A program made the translations under genes and the position numbers. DNA of 64,000 nucleotides. It comes from an uncultured Flavobacteriaceae bacterium. Its GTDB lineage: Bacteria; Bacteroidota; Bacteroidia; Flavobacteriales; Flavobacteriaceae. The notes under the pieces were generated by a model. It saw only the letters and a list, made by a program, of their open reading frames with translations, had not been told where the DNA came from and searched no databases. The stretch is taken from contig CANLUH010000004.1 of assembly GCA_947494205.1 (NCBI GenBank), positions 152,773 to 216,772 on the forward strand, written 5' to 3'. Positions within the stretch are counted from its first letter, which is position 1. The number at the start of each line of letters is the position of its first letter. This document shows positions 19,251 to 39,509 of this stretch, piece after piece.

Positions 19251-19402
19251 TTTTTGGGGAATGAGCAGGATTACTCACGCCATTTTATTTTTGTTAATAG
19301 GTGTTCATGAATACTTCGTATTTGAACCCGCATATACAACTTGGCTAGTTGTCGTTTTCCATATTTTAACCACCATTCCCATTTATATCATTAAAAAAAG
19401 TA

Positions 19403-19475
19403 AAGCGCATGTGAGGCTCGAACTCACGACCCTTAGGTTGTCTGCCTAATGCTCTTCCAACTGAGCTAACACGCT
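19403..19475 (-). tRNA. tRNA-Val(GAC)-like with A at position 33
   Basis: Acceptor with two G-U pairs, D-arm GCTC-AGTTGGAA-GAGC, anticodon arm TTAGG-CAGACAA-CCTAA, T-arm GTGAG-TTCGAGC-CTCAC. The track ORF 19261-19449 is an artefact overlapping this and other elements. Confidence 0.5.
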
Positions 19476-19485
19476 TTACAGTATT

Positions 19486-20853
19486 TTACCACGGACTTAC
19501 TTTATAATCTTTTAATAACGTTCCTACTAATATAGCATTTCCATTTAAGGCCTCTATAATTGGATACAATATTCTTGCTGCTCCATCTACTGAATCTAAA
19601 GGCGGAATATAGCCTTCTTCAAATTGTTTTTTACGCAATGCTTCTTTTGCTCCAGTAGAGATCCAACCCACATCTACTGCGTACATATAAATGTTATCTT
19701 TTTTATAATCTGTTCCAGACGTTTTTGTTAGCATATTTAATGCGGCTTTTGTCATATTAGTATGCGGATGAAAAATCGTTTTATTACTATAGTTAAAAAT
19801 ACCTTCAGAAGAGGTCACATTAATAATAAAACGTTGATTAAATTCTGAATTCTTAAACAATGGAGTCAATTCTTTAATCATAAAATAAGGCGATATTTGA
19901 TTAATTAAATTCACTTCTAACAACTCGTACATAGACACTTCTTCTAGCGTAGAATTCCAACTTGTTTTGGTACGTTCATCTACGGGTTGCCCAAATCTAT
20001 TCATTTCGAAATCTTTATTTTCTGATGTATCTGCTAAGAGTTTCACATCTTCTATAACTGCTGTTTCATTTGGAATTAAATGTGTTTCTCCAGTATATGA
20101 TTCTACTAACTTCTGCTCTTTTTTTACTATTGGCAAGTAATAATTATCATCGTATTTTATTGTTTGTGCTGCATTATTTATAAGAATATCTAAAGTGCTG
20201 TACTTCGATTTGTAATAAGAAATAAAGTGTTCTACTGCTTTTAAATTACGTAAATCTAATCCGTAAATAGTAAGCCTATCTTTCCATAAGTTATAATCGC
20301 TTTCTTTTTTAAAACCTTCTAATGCTAGAGCTGGAAAACGTGTGGTTAACATAACATTTGCATCGGCTCGTAATAATTTTAAAGCGGTTGCAAATCCTAC
20401 TTTTACGCGACCTCCAGTAATAATAACATTTCTATTTTTTAAATCTACTGTTTTAAAACGTTGGTTGTAATTAAATTCTGCGCAGTCTGGACATAAACGG
20501 TTATAGAAAAAATGTAACTTATTGAAATCGGTACCACAACAATAACATCCTTTTGATTTATTTAATAGTTTATAAGTAGTATCCTCCTTGTTATCATCTG
20601 CATATAGCGTTTTATTTCCCAATGCATTTTTTGAAATTACAGTACTTTTTATTGTTACTATATCTTCGGCTTTTACTTTAGTAAAAGCTTCTTTTGTTTT
20701 ATATTTTTTTGCTGTTTTATAAACCTTGGTTATTAATCCTGATAGTAGTGGGTTATCGGGATTATTAAATGGGTCTTTTTTAAGTTCGTTTAAAACCTTA
20801 ATACAGTGTTCCCATTCTTCTTGAGTGTAATTATATGATTCGAATGTATTCAT
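19486..20853 (-). CDS. Zn-ribbon-fused SDR-like oxidoreductase
   Basis: N-terminal CxxC...CxxC (CYCCG...CPDC) followed by a Rossmann motif ITGGRVKVGFATALKLL and NNAAQ. Catalytic residues are atypical. Confidence 0.55.
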   Translation of the reverse strand: MNTFESYNYTQEEWEHCIKVLNELKKDPFNNPDNPLLSGLITKVYKTAKKYKTKEAFTKVKAEDIVTIKSTVISKNALGNKTLYADDNKEDTTYKLLNKSKGCYCCGTDFNKLHFFYNRLCPDCAEFNYNQRFKTVDLKNRNVIITGGRVKVGFATALKLLRADANVMLTTRFPALALEGFKKESDYNLWKDRLTIYGLDLRNLKAVEHFISYYKSKYSTLDILINNAAQTIKYDDNYYLPIVKKEQKLVESYTGETHLIPNETAVIEDVKLLADTSENKDFEMNRFGQPVDERTKTSWNSTLEEVSMYELLEVNLINQISPYFMIKELTPLFKNSEFNQRFIINVTSSEGIFNYSNKTIFHPHTNMTKAALNMLTKTSGTDYKKDNIYMYAVDVGWISTGAKEALRKKQFEEGYIPPLDSVDGAARILYPIIEALNGNAILVGTLLKDYKVSPW

Positions 20854-20861
20854 CTTTACTA

Positions 20862-21557
20862 TTATAAAAAGGGTTCTAAAAAACCTATTAATGTTTTGTC
20901 TTTAATGCGCCAACGCATGCCGTGACCGCTTGCAACTCTAATTTCGTATACTAATTCGTGTTTGTAATGGTAAAACACATTCCACCAAGTATGTTTATCT
21001 ATTAGTTTACTAACTAGTATTCTTACTTTTGTTTCTTTTTCTATGGGTTTACCTTGTATGTTTCCCCAAAAATTATCTTCGGTTCTATCTATATGTTTTT
21101 CCCAGGCTCTTAAAGCAATACTTATATGTTTATTGTAGGGTTTAAAACTACTCTCTAGCACGTCTTGTTTTAATAATGGTAATCCTTCTATTGTTTGAAC
21201 AGTTGCAGAGGTTATACGTTGTCCCATTAATACTAATACGTACTTAAAGTCTATGGTTTCTAGAACTTGTGCTATTGCTTTTTGGGTTAACGTATTAGAT
21301 TTAGAGTCTTGTTGTTCTATTAATTTTAATGATGGTTTAAATAATAAAAATGCATCTAATAATAGAGGTGTTAGTTCTTCATTAAAATGCGGATGTGGTA
21401 GTGTTTCGGGTACTGCTTCAAAATAGCACTTAGTAAGTGTTTTTGCTAGTTTCTCTAAATACTCTTTTTTAAACAACGGACGATGTATCTCAATCCATTC
21501 CGAAGTATAGTGAGATTGTGAGTCTATTAGTATTTGTATTAAGAGTTCTGTTTTCAT
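20862..21557 (-). CDS. hypothetical protein
   Basis: 231 aa with no motif recognised. Preceded, in minus orientation, by the conserved promoter/operator motif at 21660-21705. Confidence 0.4.
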   Translation of the reverse strand: MKTELLIQILIDSQSHYTSEWIEIHRPLFKKEYLEKLAKTLTKCYFEAVPETLPHPHFNEELTPLLLDAFLLFKPSLKLIEQQDSKSNTLTQKAIAQVLETIDFKYVLVLMGQRITSATVQTIEGLPLLKQDVLESSFKPYNKHISIALRAWEKHIDRTEDNFWGNIQGKPIEKETKVRILVSKLIDKHTWWNVFYHYKHELVYEIRVASGHGMRWRIKDKTLIGFLEPFL

Positions 21558-21830
21558 ATTTATTTCCTGCGAAAGCAGTAATCTTATTATCGTTATTTTA
21601 ATAACTTAATTACCGATAGCAAATTACTGCAAATACAGTAATTATTAATGGTTTCTGAAGCAAATATGTAATGCTTTTACGCATTGTTTTTGCGTAGTGG
21701 TTATTTTTTATAATATAATCTCAATACAAAATTCCTGAAAAAGGAATTCCACTCGATTTGACGATTCCACAGACAATATATTAAAGCATAGCCGATAATT
21801 TTAATAGTATTTTTCGACTATGCTTGTATA

Positions 21831-22829
21831 TTACCTATACAGAAACGTCTCTTTAACCATATTTGCTGCTTCTTTGTTAAGCATTTTGGTCATTCTTTTT
21901 TGACTTTCCTTTTCTGTATTTTCCCATTGTGACTCGTAATCTTTTTTAAAGTCTACAAGGGCATCTTGTGCAAATAGTCCAATGGTTTTTCCCATTTGTT
22001 TTAATGAGAATTCTCCAAGTTTACTTTGTACATTCATTAATCTATTTTCGCTTACATAACTTAAAAGGTAATTAGCAGTTTCTTTTTCTAAATCTGAAAA
22101 TACTTTAACCTCTTTTGTTATTTTATTTTTTGAATGTGTTCGTTCTGACCATTTTTCATTTTTATTTTTAAAAATAACACGCTGTCCATTTCTAAAATGC
22201 TTACTTATAACTGGCTTAATAATTACTCCTTCGCAAATGTTTTCTTCAATTTCTGGAAGTTTTAACCAAGTTGGGATTTTAGACTGAAATGTATTTGGGT
22301 AGTCTAAACATTTTTGCAGCGTTCCTTGAAATAAGGTTTTTGCGTAAAATAGTTCTACGGTTTCAAAATAGATATTTACTACAGATACATCTAAATATTT
22401 GGTTTGATTAATACAAATATCGAATGCATAAAAGTCGTTTTCTGGGCTGTAGAATACACCTTTTTGTACTCTAGGCATTCCTTTTATATTATCGACATCT
22501 GGGTGCTCATAACTACCTCCAAACAATTCTCCAAAAACAGTAATTACTTCTGTTTCTGGGTAATCTATCTTTACTAATCCAAATAGGGTTTTTATAGCCT
22601 CGGAATAAGTATCTAATACATATTGGTAATTGCTAAAGTTTTCTCCTTCTAAAATGAGACCACTACGTTTTGCAACATGTATCTCTTTACCATTAGTAAT
22701 AAAAGAAAAGTTAGCGCCATGTACTTTTTCTTGTACCACATAGGTTTCTTTATCATAACCATGTAGGTAGATTTGCTCTACTTCCTTTTCACGGTAAGTA
22801 TTTTCAATACTGTTGTATTTTTTAAACAT
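21831..22829 (-). CDS. RNA ligase, T4 Rnl2 family
   Basis: Starts MFKKYNSIENTYRE... and carries the EKVHGANFS nucleotidyltransferase motif I. Near end-to-end resemblance to T4 RnlB (MFKKYSSLENHY...EKIHGTNFS), recalled from memory. Confidence 0.85.
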   Translation of the reverse strand: MFKKYNSIENTYREKEVEQIYLHGYDKETYVVQEKVHGANFSFITNGKEIHVAKRSGLILEGENFSNYQYVLDTYSEAIKTLFGLVKIDYPETEVITVFGELFGGSYEHPDVDNIKGMPRVQKGVFYSPENDFYAFDICINQTKYLDVSVVNIYFETVELFYAKTLFQGTLQKCLDYPNTFQSKIPTWLKLPEIEENICEGVIIKPVISKHFRNGQRVIFKNKNEKWSERTHSKNKITKEVKVFSDLEKETANYLLSYVSENRLMNVQSKLGEFSLKQMGKTIGLFAQDALVDFKKDYESQWENTEKESQKRMTKMLNKEAANMVKETFLYR

Positions 22830-39045: not shown

Positions 39046-39050
39046 ATGTT

Positions 39051-39180
39051 TTGGAGTTACGAAGACTTACACTCCGTTTTGCAAATTGCAAATGAGCTTG
39101 CGAATTCAACGAAACTTATTTATCAAAATAAATTTCAGTGAGTTAAACCCGTTGTTTTAGCCAGTTAAACTATAACCCCA
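39051..39180 (-). ncRNA. tRNA-like element whose acceptor strands (GGGGTTA / TAACTCC) are ~115 nt apart; possible intron- or insertion-containing tRNA
   Basis: 5' side has acceptor plus a perfect D-arm GTTT-AACTGGCTA-AAAC. The 3' side has CGGAG-TGTAAGT-CTTCG plus a complementary acceptor strand. The intervening segment contains the palindrome TTGCAAATTTGCAA. Confidence 0.25.
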
Positions 39181-39188
39181 TAGTATTG

Positions 39189-39275
39189 CGGAGGACAAAG
39201 GAATCGAACCTTCACCGCCATATGGCGGACTTGTTTAGCAGACAAGCGCAACGAACCAACATTTGCCTATCCTCC
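39189..39275 (-). tRNA. tRNA-Ser(GCT)
   Basis: Acceptor GGAGGAT/GTCCTCC, D-stem GCAA/TTGC, anticodon arm CTTGT-CTGCTAA-ACAAG, long variable hairpin CCGCC-ATAT-GGCGG, T-arm GAAGG-TTCGATT-CCTTT. Confidence 0.7.
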
Positions 39276-39290
39276 ATTTAATTTATTTAG

Positions 39291-39363
39291 TCTGAGAGAC
39301 AGGAGTCGAACCTGCAACCTCTCGCATCCAAAGCGAGTAAACTATCCATCGTTATCCTCTCAG
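39291..39363 (-). tRNA. tRNA-Pro(TGG), second copy
   Basis: Acceptor CTGAGAG/CTCTCAG, anticodon arm CTCGC-TTTGGAT-GCGAG, T-arm GCAGG-TTCGACT-CCTGT. Confidence 0.6.
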
Positions 39364-39509
39364 TTTTGCGGAAGGAGTGGGAGTAGTTCATGTTTTTTCT
39401 ATTTTATTAAATAGGTATTCATGAATACTTTGTATTTCGAATCCACACGAGTCATTAACTCCGAACAGTTTTCAAGACTGTGGCCACCTCCTATTGCCCT
39501 TCCGTTTTG

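Follow-up and report, generated by a model that had tools for sequence, protein, structure and literature searches.

According to a 2014 review, bacterial tRNA genes are structurally uniform and known to be interrupted only by group I or group II introns at position 37/38 (PMC4033280). Group I introns reside in the anticodon loop, and their catalytic core takes up about 100 nt or more (PMC4033280). Long tRNA arrays (L-arrays), described from several phyla, Bacteroidetes among them, pack as many as 24 tRNA genes in conserved order into an 8-kb stretch beside genes for RtcB and RNA repair (PMC8421152). Among small mobile DNAs, those of the IS200/IS605 group are inserted on the 3' side of a target of 4-5 nt and leave it without a scar, and the Bacteroidetes-specific subclass 2.6 of REP-associated tyrosine transposases (RAYTs) goes with 'atypical' repetitive extragenic palindromes (REPs) that lack GTAG (PMC6006769). 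Here we analyse a 64,000-nt stretch from an uncultured Flavobacteriaceae bacterium (contig CANLUH010000004.1, positions 152,773 to 216,772; the window, hereafter), in which a long tRNA array carries several copies of a short hairpin motif. We consider it likely that this motif is a non-coding Bacteroidota hairpin repeat that behaves as mobile DNA in the manner of REPs or of MITEs, the miniature inverted-repeat transposable elements. In contrast to the picture drawn by the 2014 review, dozens of Bacteroidota genomes contain tRNA genes that are split in the T-loop or the anticodon loop by this structured element of 50 nt. A full-text literature search, incomplete in its coverage, returned no prior description of the element, and the parts of the L-array paper (PMC8421152) reached by a term search hold no mention of insertions inside array tRNA genes.

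A repeat inside tRNA genes and between other genes

The initial annotation had flagged five loci as palindromic tRNA-like 3' modules scattered among the tRNAs, an interpretation that is partly supported. All five are homologous copies of one motif, which reads GGTTCGAAATRC-N3-GYATTCAYGAR on the minus strand, and they can be aligned over the whole ~50-60 nt rather than the ~30 nt flagged earlier. The palindrome, when two mismatches or fewer were allowed, was found five times against an expectation of 0.44, a number reached by none of 100 shuffles, and a nhmmer profile built from the five copies scored each of them at E values of 3e-12 to 6e-16. The existence of a miniature repeat family among the tRNAs was thus confirmed by alignment and profile search, which also revealed two additional copies, full-length and oppositely oriented, and a second family that is related to the first (Table 1). 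The perfect palindrome GTATTCATGAATAC is present at 39415-39428 and absent from the other four copies; the conserved core is a 5-bp hairpin with CAYGAR behind it. No known RNA family was recognised by Rfam at any element copy (E<=1, 18800-39800).

ARAGORN predicted 21 tRNA genes, all on the minus strand, in clusters at 19010-19476, 22867-23275 and 37571-39582, and the five flagged loci occupy gaps of 134-272 nt between them. When these gaps were folded, a 7-bp acceptor-type stem was found to enclose each unit of ~125-180 nt; the repeat begins directly after a T-loop, GGTTCGA, and the complementary 3' strand of the T stem comes after the repeat. In silico excision restored an ARAGORN tRNA for four of the five flagged units and for a further one, unit E. 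What had been taken for a T-loop mimic without a 5' tRNA half is therefore the real T-loop of a complete, interrupted host gene, since the acceptor stem closes each unit and a matching 5' half is present in every unit of the window. Nor is the element derived from tRNA: A58 is followed by the first nucleotide of the element proper, in which there is no tRNA sequence and which is also present at sites outside tRNAs. The remark that standard tRNA annotation leaves the repeats unexplained was correct, as ARAGORN misses the interrupted genes. Family 1 and the second family together occupy seven genes of this accessory long tRNA array, with a second insertion present in each of units B, C and D; tRNA finders silently miss such genes, which here amount to 7 of about 28 in the array.

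Comparison between strains supplied empty and filled versions of the same sites. An exact-protein look-up with the gene adjoining the main cluster retrieved six strain-variant contigs; of these, L008 and L010 match the window at up to 96-97% identity across the tRNA cluster. The Ser(UGA) site is empty in L008 (GTGGGTTCGA^CTCCCAC) and holds a 53-nt insert in the window, and the Met(CAU) site is empty in the window (CAGGTTCGA^TTCCTGG) and holds a 53-nt insert in L008. Likewise, L008 and L009 have an insert in the Arg(UCU) gene where L011 and L012 have none, the Glu gene of L011 and L012 is filled where that of the window is empty, and the Pro gene, empty in the window, has become part of a Pro/Glu fusion in L008 and is truncated in L009, L011 and L012. 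These pairs (TTCGA^TT against TTCGA-element-TT, and TTCGA^CT against TTCGA-element-CT) place the insertion point between nucleotides 58 and 59, with at most 1 nt of junction ambiguity and no target duplication. Hybrid genes (the L008 Pro/Glu fusion and unit E) and DNA deletions between copies bear out the suggested link to recombination, and the role as processing sites that was proposed alongside it is possible; in L058 and L074, the element and 3' exon are identical and the 5' exons are 73% identical, which indicates a recombination breakpoint at the T-loop.

When each species was represented by a single genome, a scan with a T-loop-containing pattern yielded 103 stretches; full copies, 108 in total, were present in 78 of them. 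The carriers belong to the Flavobacteriaceae and to further Bacteroidota, among them Winogradskyella, Aquimarina, Kordia, Tenacibaculum and Flavobacterium, and nearly every copy is part of a homologous long tRNA array with conserved gene order. Across the genome loci, the window and the sister-strain contigs, excision restored a tRNA in 63 of 131 copies, and the geometry was exact in 62 of the restored copies: TTCGA, the element, two nucleotides and the 3' T stem, giving an exact 7-nt T-loop. The interrupted hosts span 16 amino-acid specificities, with species differing in which tRNAs are split, and T54-A58 and nucleotides 59-60 are preserved in every T-loop copy.

A different distribution emerged from second scans with an element-only pattern that did not require the T-loop. 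At least 120 metagenome stretches matched; among the 121 matches listed, 105 were full-length and 101 distinct, none of the 105 full-length copies adjoined a T-loop, and 112 of the 121 were intergenic, with the four arrangements relative to neighbouring genes about equally common. Copies outside tRNA genes also occur in L121, L136 and L071, and flanking sequence contains about one extra copy per 60 kb. In the metagenome matches listed, the flanks are random except for G/C at -2 (88%), A at -1 (98%), A at +1 (98%) and A/T at +2 (94%), so that insertion takes place between A and A in (G/C)A^A(A/T), without target duplication or terminal inverted repeats. The T-loop matches this target at 58/59 (TTCGA^AT), and antisense anticodon loops match it too: TTAGA^A in Arg UCU, TTCGA^A in Arg UCG, TTGGA^A in Gly UCC and GTCA^A in Gln UUG. 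Because the intergenic copies and their flank logo share their target with the T-loop and anticodon loops, the element is a general interspersed repeat for which tRNA loops are one class of landing site. A homing element specific for the T-loop was accordingly rejected, as none of the 101 distinct metagenome copies listed adjoins a T-loop.

A phage origin was also considered and rejected: Pfam assigns chromosomal genes to both sides, no close phage record was found, and IMG/VR is almost devoid of copies. The motif search in phage data that had been proposed as a check returned mostly chance matches from IMG/VR in the element-only scan, together with two true copies in intergenic DNA, and relatives of the ligase Rnl2 in IMG/VR led only to unrelated phage tRNA clusters from which the motif is absent.

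Covarying structure and proposed movement

The element is non-coding, measures ~46-54 nt and consists, from 5' to 3', of a hairpin P1, a CA linker, a helix P2 enclosing an A/T-rich variable middle, and a tail, (C)TA. P1 is a 5-bp hairpin, AATGC-N3-GCATT. P2 is a helix of the form 5'-YGARN/NYGAR-3', in which three covarying Watson-Crick pairs surround an invariant tandem G.A/A.G. In an anchored comparison of 57 distinct T-loop copies, Y16 : R(-4) was 28 times C-G, 24 times U-A, twice G.U and three times other; R19 : Y(-7) was A-U in 34 copies and G-C in 14; N20 : N(-8) was U-A in 29 and C-G in 22; and G17.A(-5) and A18.G(-6) were invariant in all 57. In a 55-sequence alignment, P1 is 99% paired with one covarying pair (G-C to A-U), and P2 is 93% paired with all three Watson-Crick pairs covarying. 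Paired cells make up 82%, against 29-44% in slid controls, and none of 500 shuffles reached the observed value. The independent metagenome set repeats the covariation among the matches listed (57 C-G/37 U-A, then 54 C-G/36 U-A); both P2 boxes were fixed by the search pattern in this set, so the invariance of the G.A pairs is taken from the first set only. In one Cytophagales copy, P1 has been wholly swapped to GACC-GAA-GGTC. Copies that proved unrelated, or that lacked covariance, had been named beforehand as what would speak against such a family; the copies align and their P2 pairs covary.

The G.A pairs form only on the element's own strand, and reversed copies retain this feature. Since the structure is conserved whichever way transcription runs, selection more likely acts on single-stranded DNA than on a tRNA transcript. 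An alternative pairing is also available, as both YGAR boxes are complementary, by Watson-Crick and wobble pairs, to U54-U55-C56-G57; the T-loop is invariant, which makes covariation uninformative about this pairing. The CTA tail is enriched in T-loop copies (31/58 against 5/96; Fisher p about 1e-11), and its C would pair with G53.

Several described structures were compared with the element and set aside. Hammerhead and other self-cleaving ribozymes have no Rfam match here, the sequence upstream of the G.A is UUCAY and not CUGA, and the R after GA covaries with Y16. A kink-turn or box C/D motif does not fit, as covarying Watson-Crick pairs stand on either side of the tandem G.A and no bulge is present. 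For a group I intron, ~50 nt without an Rfam match leaves no catalytic core P3-P9. A bulge-helix-bulge intron, when drawn by hand, has only a 4-bp central UUCG/YGAR helix, which is bulged by 4-5 nt on one side and lacks an outer helix on the other. A classical MITE is excluded by ends (AATGC... and ...GAGCTA) that are not inverted repeats and by the lack of a target-site duplication.

That the repeat is mobile as DNA, with a target that the T-loop happens to match, is suggested by the intergenic metagenome copies listed, all of which lie at (G/C)A^A(A/T) and none in a T-loop. Both orientations relative to the tRNA occur, and closely similar elements are found in unrelated tRNAs: those of Arg(ACG) in L031 and Leu(UAA) in L036 are 96% identical, and those of the Leu gene of L099 and the His gene of L078 are 91% identical. 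The nearest relative of an element lies in a different tRNA type in 30 copies and in the same tRNA type of another genome in 27 of 59, the latter pointing to vertical descent and long residence. By analogy, the features most resemble the ends of IS200/IS605 and single-strand elements of the REP/RAYT type, because the structure is strand-specific, the flanking target is short, there is no duplication and the empty sites are seamless. We therefore speculate on single-strand 'peel-and-paste' movement, performed in trans by HUH/Y1 enzymes, in which insertion into a T-loop or an anticodon loop would be a chance match of the target. A compact mobile repeat with a covarying structure and a 4-nt target offers a tractable model for the movement of small hairpins in Bacteroidota.

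A number of points weigh against this reading. The 64-kb window yielded no gene for a transposase, an integrase or an HUH/Y1 enzyme, nor did the sequence within about 4 kb of 69 genome copies, and no HUH/Y1 motif was found among 101 open reading frames (ORFs) adjoining the metagenome copies listed. The genome scan required TTCG and thus had a bias towards tRNA built in. Single copies, when folded thermodynamically, gave weak structures that did not agree with one another (z-scores of -0.6 to -2.8). The GTAG/GTGG foot of classical REPs is missing, (G/C)A being followed directly by AATGC, and there is no match to the Bacteroidetes REPs listed with RAYT subclass 2.6 (PMC6006769). In four Kordia-type Leu(UAA) genes, the 84-nt exons are 100% identical, the elements 78-92% identical and the neighbouring tRNAs different; gene conversion of the element middle, not selection on the exons, could account for this identity. 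Finally, several hosts in the window are decaying (G with its D-stem deletion, C with its degenerate T stem, E a hybrid, F unrecognisable), a pattern that fits plain gene death.

Two further ideas were rejected. As to a transposase beside the copies, clustering of the ORFs at 69 loci gave only Band7, TPR, YkuK-like RNaseH_like, metallophosphatase, Rnl2, RNase T and RlaP proteins, and an autonomous parent element in Cytophagales was discarded, as the truncated copies there adjoin ordinary chromosomal genes.

Interrupted units, the RNA-repair island and the fate of the tRNAs

Table 1. Interrupted units of the window and the elements that they contain
Feature	Position	Strand	Evidence and remarks
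Unit A, interrupted tRNA-Gly(GCC)	19256..19380	-	Acceptor stem GGGAATG/CATTCCC; ARAGORN tRNA-Gly(gcc) after element removal
Family-1 element, forward, unit A T-loop after TTCAA	19272..19321	-	nhmmer E 7.6e-14
Unit B, interrupted short tRNA-Leu(UAA)-type, two inserts	23034..23197	-	tRNA-Leu(taa) after removing both
Family-1 element, forward, unit B T-loop 58/59	23049..23095	-	nhmmer E 3.4e-12
Third insertion type, unit B, D/anticodon-stem junction	23128..23173	-	GCGAG-AAAAAAC-AATT-GTTTTTT-CGAAGG...
Unit C, interrupted tRNA-Phe(GAA), two inserts, degenerate 3' T stem	37655..37834	-	
Family-1 element, forward, unit C T-loop; P1 = ATGC/GCAT	37672..37723	-	nhmmer E 1.8e-15
Family-2 element, forward, unit C anticodon loop (about 37/38)	37745..37797	-	ATGAG-TTTG-CGAA...CGAA...TGAG-TTA
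Unit D, interrupted tRNA-Gln(UUG), two inserts	37999..38174	-	tRNA-Gln(ttg) after removing both
Family-1 element, forward, unit D T-loop	38014..38067	-	nhmmer E 6.3e-16
Family-1 element, full-length, reversed, unit D anticodon loop	38091..38141	+	nhmmer E 2.5e-8; P2 pairs intact
Unit E, interrupted tRNA-Gly(UCC), hybrid with tRNA-Arg(UCU) 3' end	38674..38795	-	Gly(tcc) after excision
Family-1 element, full-length, reversed, unit E anticodon loop (33/34)	38713..38762	+	nhmmer E 1e-7
Unit F, tRNA-like, closed by GGGGTTA/TAACTCC	39052..39179	-	Folding
Family-2 element, reversed, inside unit F	39092..39145	+	Reverse complement of unit C family-2 copy
Unit G, interrupted tRNA-Ser(UGA)	39369..39503	-	L008 orthologue (7509-7596) is an uninterrupted tRNA-Ser(tga)
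Family-1 element, forward, unit G T-loop (58/59), sole perfect palindrome	39384..39436	-	nhmmer E 5.8e-15

The units differ in their relatives elsewhere and in their state of preservation. Orthologues of unit B in L036, L049, L116 and L077 have a single interruption; its element subtype has close relatives in the Leu(UAA) genes of Aquimarina loci and in Arg(ACG) of L031, mutually 96% identical, and its insertion of the third type is absent from the orthologues in L036 and L116 and occurs in L054 with a compensatory change of A-T to T-A. For unit C, tRNA-Phe(gaa) was recovered only with shifted boundaries, and the same array position holds an uninterrupted Phe gene in L009 and L011; the family-2 copy of this unit, a weak match to the family-1 profile, has counterparts in the anticodon loops of Ser(UGA) and Tyr genes (L039, L084, L059, L065 and L053). 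An intact Gln gene takes the array position of unit D in L011 and L012. In unit E, whose flank in element orientation is GATTGGA^AATGC, the hybrid junction lies at the T-loop (compared with L008, 8170-8430). ARAGORN recovered no tRNA from unit F after in silico excision, and unit G also has a 4-nt D-stem deletion and G53A.

Other irregular tRNA-like sequences were observed as well. At 36732-36844 (-), Rfam reports a tRNA (52 bits) over 113 nt that ARAGORN misses, implying an insert of ~40 nt in the anticodon region that differs in kind from the present element; a short repeat, (A/G)nn(A/C)GTTCCTRTA, occurs three times at 36560-36800 (-) against 0.12 expected, with a fourth, looser copy, and one copy lies inside this insert. 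An aberrant tRNA-like gene at 19180-19249 (-) is called 'tRNA-???' with a 2-nt anticodon by ARAGORN, and a weak Rfam tRNA match (29 bits) at 37841-37911 (-) resembles a His(GUG) gene without a normal T arm. In L030, about 90 nt upstream of Leu(UAA), a tRNA-Glu contains a shorter hairpin insert, TCCGAGGCATACTCGGA, in its T-loop and a reversed family-2 element in its anticodon loop, which indicates that array tRNA genes host several insert types.

The array, with its 21 ARAGORN tRNAs and seven interrupted units, is linked to genes for RtcB, PNKP, Rnl1, Rnl2 and RlaP, and homologous arrays are found in other genera. These genes belong to an RNA-repair island (17504-47497) that encodes a DUF434/DUF5616 protein, Rnl2, two RlaP nucleotidyltransferases, an RNase T-like exonuclease, PNKP, Rnl1, Band7, a YkuK-type RNaseH_like protein, two metallophosphatases, a TPR protein, a PrfH-like RF-1 domain protein, a further nucleotidyltransferase, RtcB and a PcfJ-like protein. 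The DUF434/DUF5616 and RNaseH_like proteins are candidate nucleases, for which sequence searches of NCBIfam and the PDB were without result. The island sits in a chromosome of Flavobacteriaceae type, flanked by genes identified through Pfam as those for biotin carboxylase, a protease with a type IX secretion system (T9SS) tail, a histidine kinase, fatty-acid/polyketide enzymes and a paralogue of elongation factor EF-G (48932-51001).

Several RNA matches fall within the island. A GOLLD RNA match at 33510-33987 (-), extending to about 33290, scores 136 bits, slightly below the gathering score of 150, and is followed near 33300 by a T-arm-like hairpin, GCCGGTTCGAATCCGGC; a closely similar sequence stands upstream at the Chitinophagaceae locus L040 (about 4682-4742), where it leads into a T-arm hairpin that the same element interrupts. 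A YrlA-like (Y RNA-like) match of 35 bits lies at 33023-33132 (-), and partial tRNA and transfer-messenger RNA (tmRNA)-like matches at 32948-33153. L008 and L010 encode a Ro60/TROVE protein where the window has a 610-aa ORF (34599-36431) without family assignment. A Flavo-1 RNA match at 31345-31420 (+) scores 53.6 bits against a gathering score of 42.

A separate arrangement was found in Ekhidna, Marinoscillum and related Cytophagales (L019, L047, L051, L055, L057, L062, L070, L075, L089 and L090), in which tandem units of 120-150 nt, one to four in number (four in L057), come after housekeeping tRNAs for Thr, Cys, Val, Pro and Ser. Each unit consists of GGATGAGAACC plus the reverse complement of nucleotides 46-53 of that tRNA, a spacer, GGTTCGA, the element and a copy of the tRNA 3' end. 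UGAGAACC... reads antisense to the T arm of the tRNA and has a tandem G.A at G57-A58; the element middle is G+C-rich, a terminator often stands at the unit end, and the genes downstream are ordinary chromosomal genes.

An interrupted tRNA would be non-functional in translation unless the insert were removed. Judging from sequence, the insert might be cut out and the exons rejoined at the RNA level by the ligases of the island, a possibility that we tentatively prefer to simple gene death; splicing is possible because the exons of interrupted genes are intact and conserved and because the island encodes RtcB, Rnl1, Rnl2 and PNKP. The T-loop copies may be domesticated tRNA introns, a doubtful but serious proposal, in which a protein endonuclease would see either the P1/P2 fold or the helix of YGARC with G53-U54-U55-C56-G57, and RtcB, or PNKP with Rnl1/Rnl2, would seal the exons. 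About half of all copies, and most single-insert forward copies, have intact exons, and the interrupted orthologues combine very high exon conservation, as in the four Kordia-type Leu(UAA) genes, with compensatory changes, those of Cys and Leu differing by such changes in the anticodon and T stems. The location of the repair genes in the same island, the tail enrichment, whose C would extend the pairing to G53, and the presence of family 2 at the canonical position 37/38 point in the same direction. However, no bulge-helix-bulge can be drawn at the junctions, and no splicing-endonuclease family was found in the window: an EndA-type enzyme was sought among Pfam matches in 40 of the 51 window ORFs of at least 75 aa and, through NCBIfam, among 10 unassigned ones, several ORFs falling into no family. 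Moreover, reversed anticodon-loop copies keep the features of their own strand, which is antisense in the tRNA transcript; most family members are intergenic, with nothing to splice; and several host genes in the window are decaying.

As pure selfish DNA, a reading that we hold possible, with reservations, the element would simply kill dispensable tRNA genes of the array on insertion, and intact exons would reflect only recent insertion. Units G, C, E and F are degenerate or hybrid, the tRNA-Pro gene is truncated in three sister contigs, double insertions occur in many genes, filled and empty sites turn over among strains, and the housekeeping tRNAs are presumably encoded elsewhere in the genome. 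Against this stand the 27 of 59 nearest relatives in the same tRNA, which imply long residence, and exons that are still foldable, show compensatory changes and are often better conserved than the element.

We think it rather unlikely that a lineage of the element has become a true bacterial tRNA intron, with array tRNAs made as inactive precursors, split in the T-loop or anticodon loop, that an endonuclease and RtcB or PNKP/Rnl would mature. If true, this would be the first protein-dependent tRNA splicing in Bacteria and would provide a natural substrate for bacterial RtcB, and interruption in loops that are attacked by toxins might protect tRNA precursors. The co-location with RtcB, PNKP, Rnl1 and Rnl2 turns the question of the in vivo substrates of bacterial RNA ligases into a simple experiment on cultivable strains.

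It is improbable that the insert is retained as an extra arm at 58/59, producing tRNA-like RNAs that would serve, for example, as decoys for tRNA-cleaving toxins or as protein scaffolds. T54-A58 and 59-60 are always preserved, and T-loop motifs tolerate insertions at 58/59. A tandem G.A helix is a typical protein-binding feature of RNA. L-arrays have, in addition, been proposed as sponges for toxin RNases (PMC8421152). The element, however, also occurs reversed and, between genes, in any orientation, so its structure is not tied to a tRNA transcript.

The least probable reading by far is that of the initial annotation, namely tRNA-derived 3' modules without 5' halves or attachment sites for an integrase or homing endonuclease: the Cytophagales copies do adjoin duplicated 3' ends of housekeeping tRNAs, resembling remnants of attachment (att) sites, but 5' halves are present in all window units, no integrase or homing endonuclease lies nearby, intergenic copies have no T-loop, and acceptor stems, in silico excision and sister-strain comparison contradict it in the window.

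Comparison with known systems

Non-canonical tRNA introns of Archaea transpose in Thermoproteales, according to the account of Fujishima et al. (2010) given in PMC4033280. Like these introns, the element is shorter than 100 nt, occupies several tRNA positions including the T arm, can be present more than once per gene and has similar copies in unrelated tRNAs, which implies movement, and an RtcB-type ligase is available. Unlike them, it resides in a bacterial host with no bulge-helix-bulge or EndA found, and it is mostly intergenic and in both orientations, which implies that it moves as DNA. With group I introns it shares mobility and the interruption of bacterial tRNA genes, but it measures ~50 nt, has no Rfam match and lies mainly in the T-loop. 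Among selfish palindromic inserts, Rickettsia palindromic elements and rRNA intervening sequences are tolerated in functional genes, and the latter are cut from the RNA without re-ligation; their sequences, hosts and sizes differ from those of the element. The window array itself matches the L-array setting, with tandem tRNA genes linked to rtcB and RNA-processing genes.

The closest likeness is to REP/REPIN sequences and IS200/IS605, which are also short (20-65 nt), high-copy, mostly intergenic repeats with strand-specific hairpins and a short conserved sequence 5' of the hairpin foot, without terminal inverted repeats or target duplication. As in miniature IS200/IS605 derivatives, subterminal hairpins lie on one strand, with P1 at the 5' end and P2 closing the 3' part, and as in REPs, copies are many and mostly extragenic. 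Unlike REPs, the element occurs as single copies rather than inverted doublets, and has two structural modules with a tandem G.A helix, and no Y1 gene was found near its copies in the window, at 69 genome loci or among 101 neighbouring ORFs; it also inserts inside tRNA genes, which the literature found does not describe for REPs. The element thus belongs with the small non-autonomous hairpin repeats, among which its architecture and its niche inside tRNA genes are unusual.

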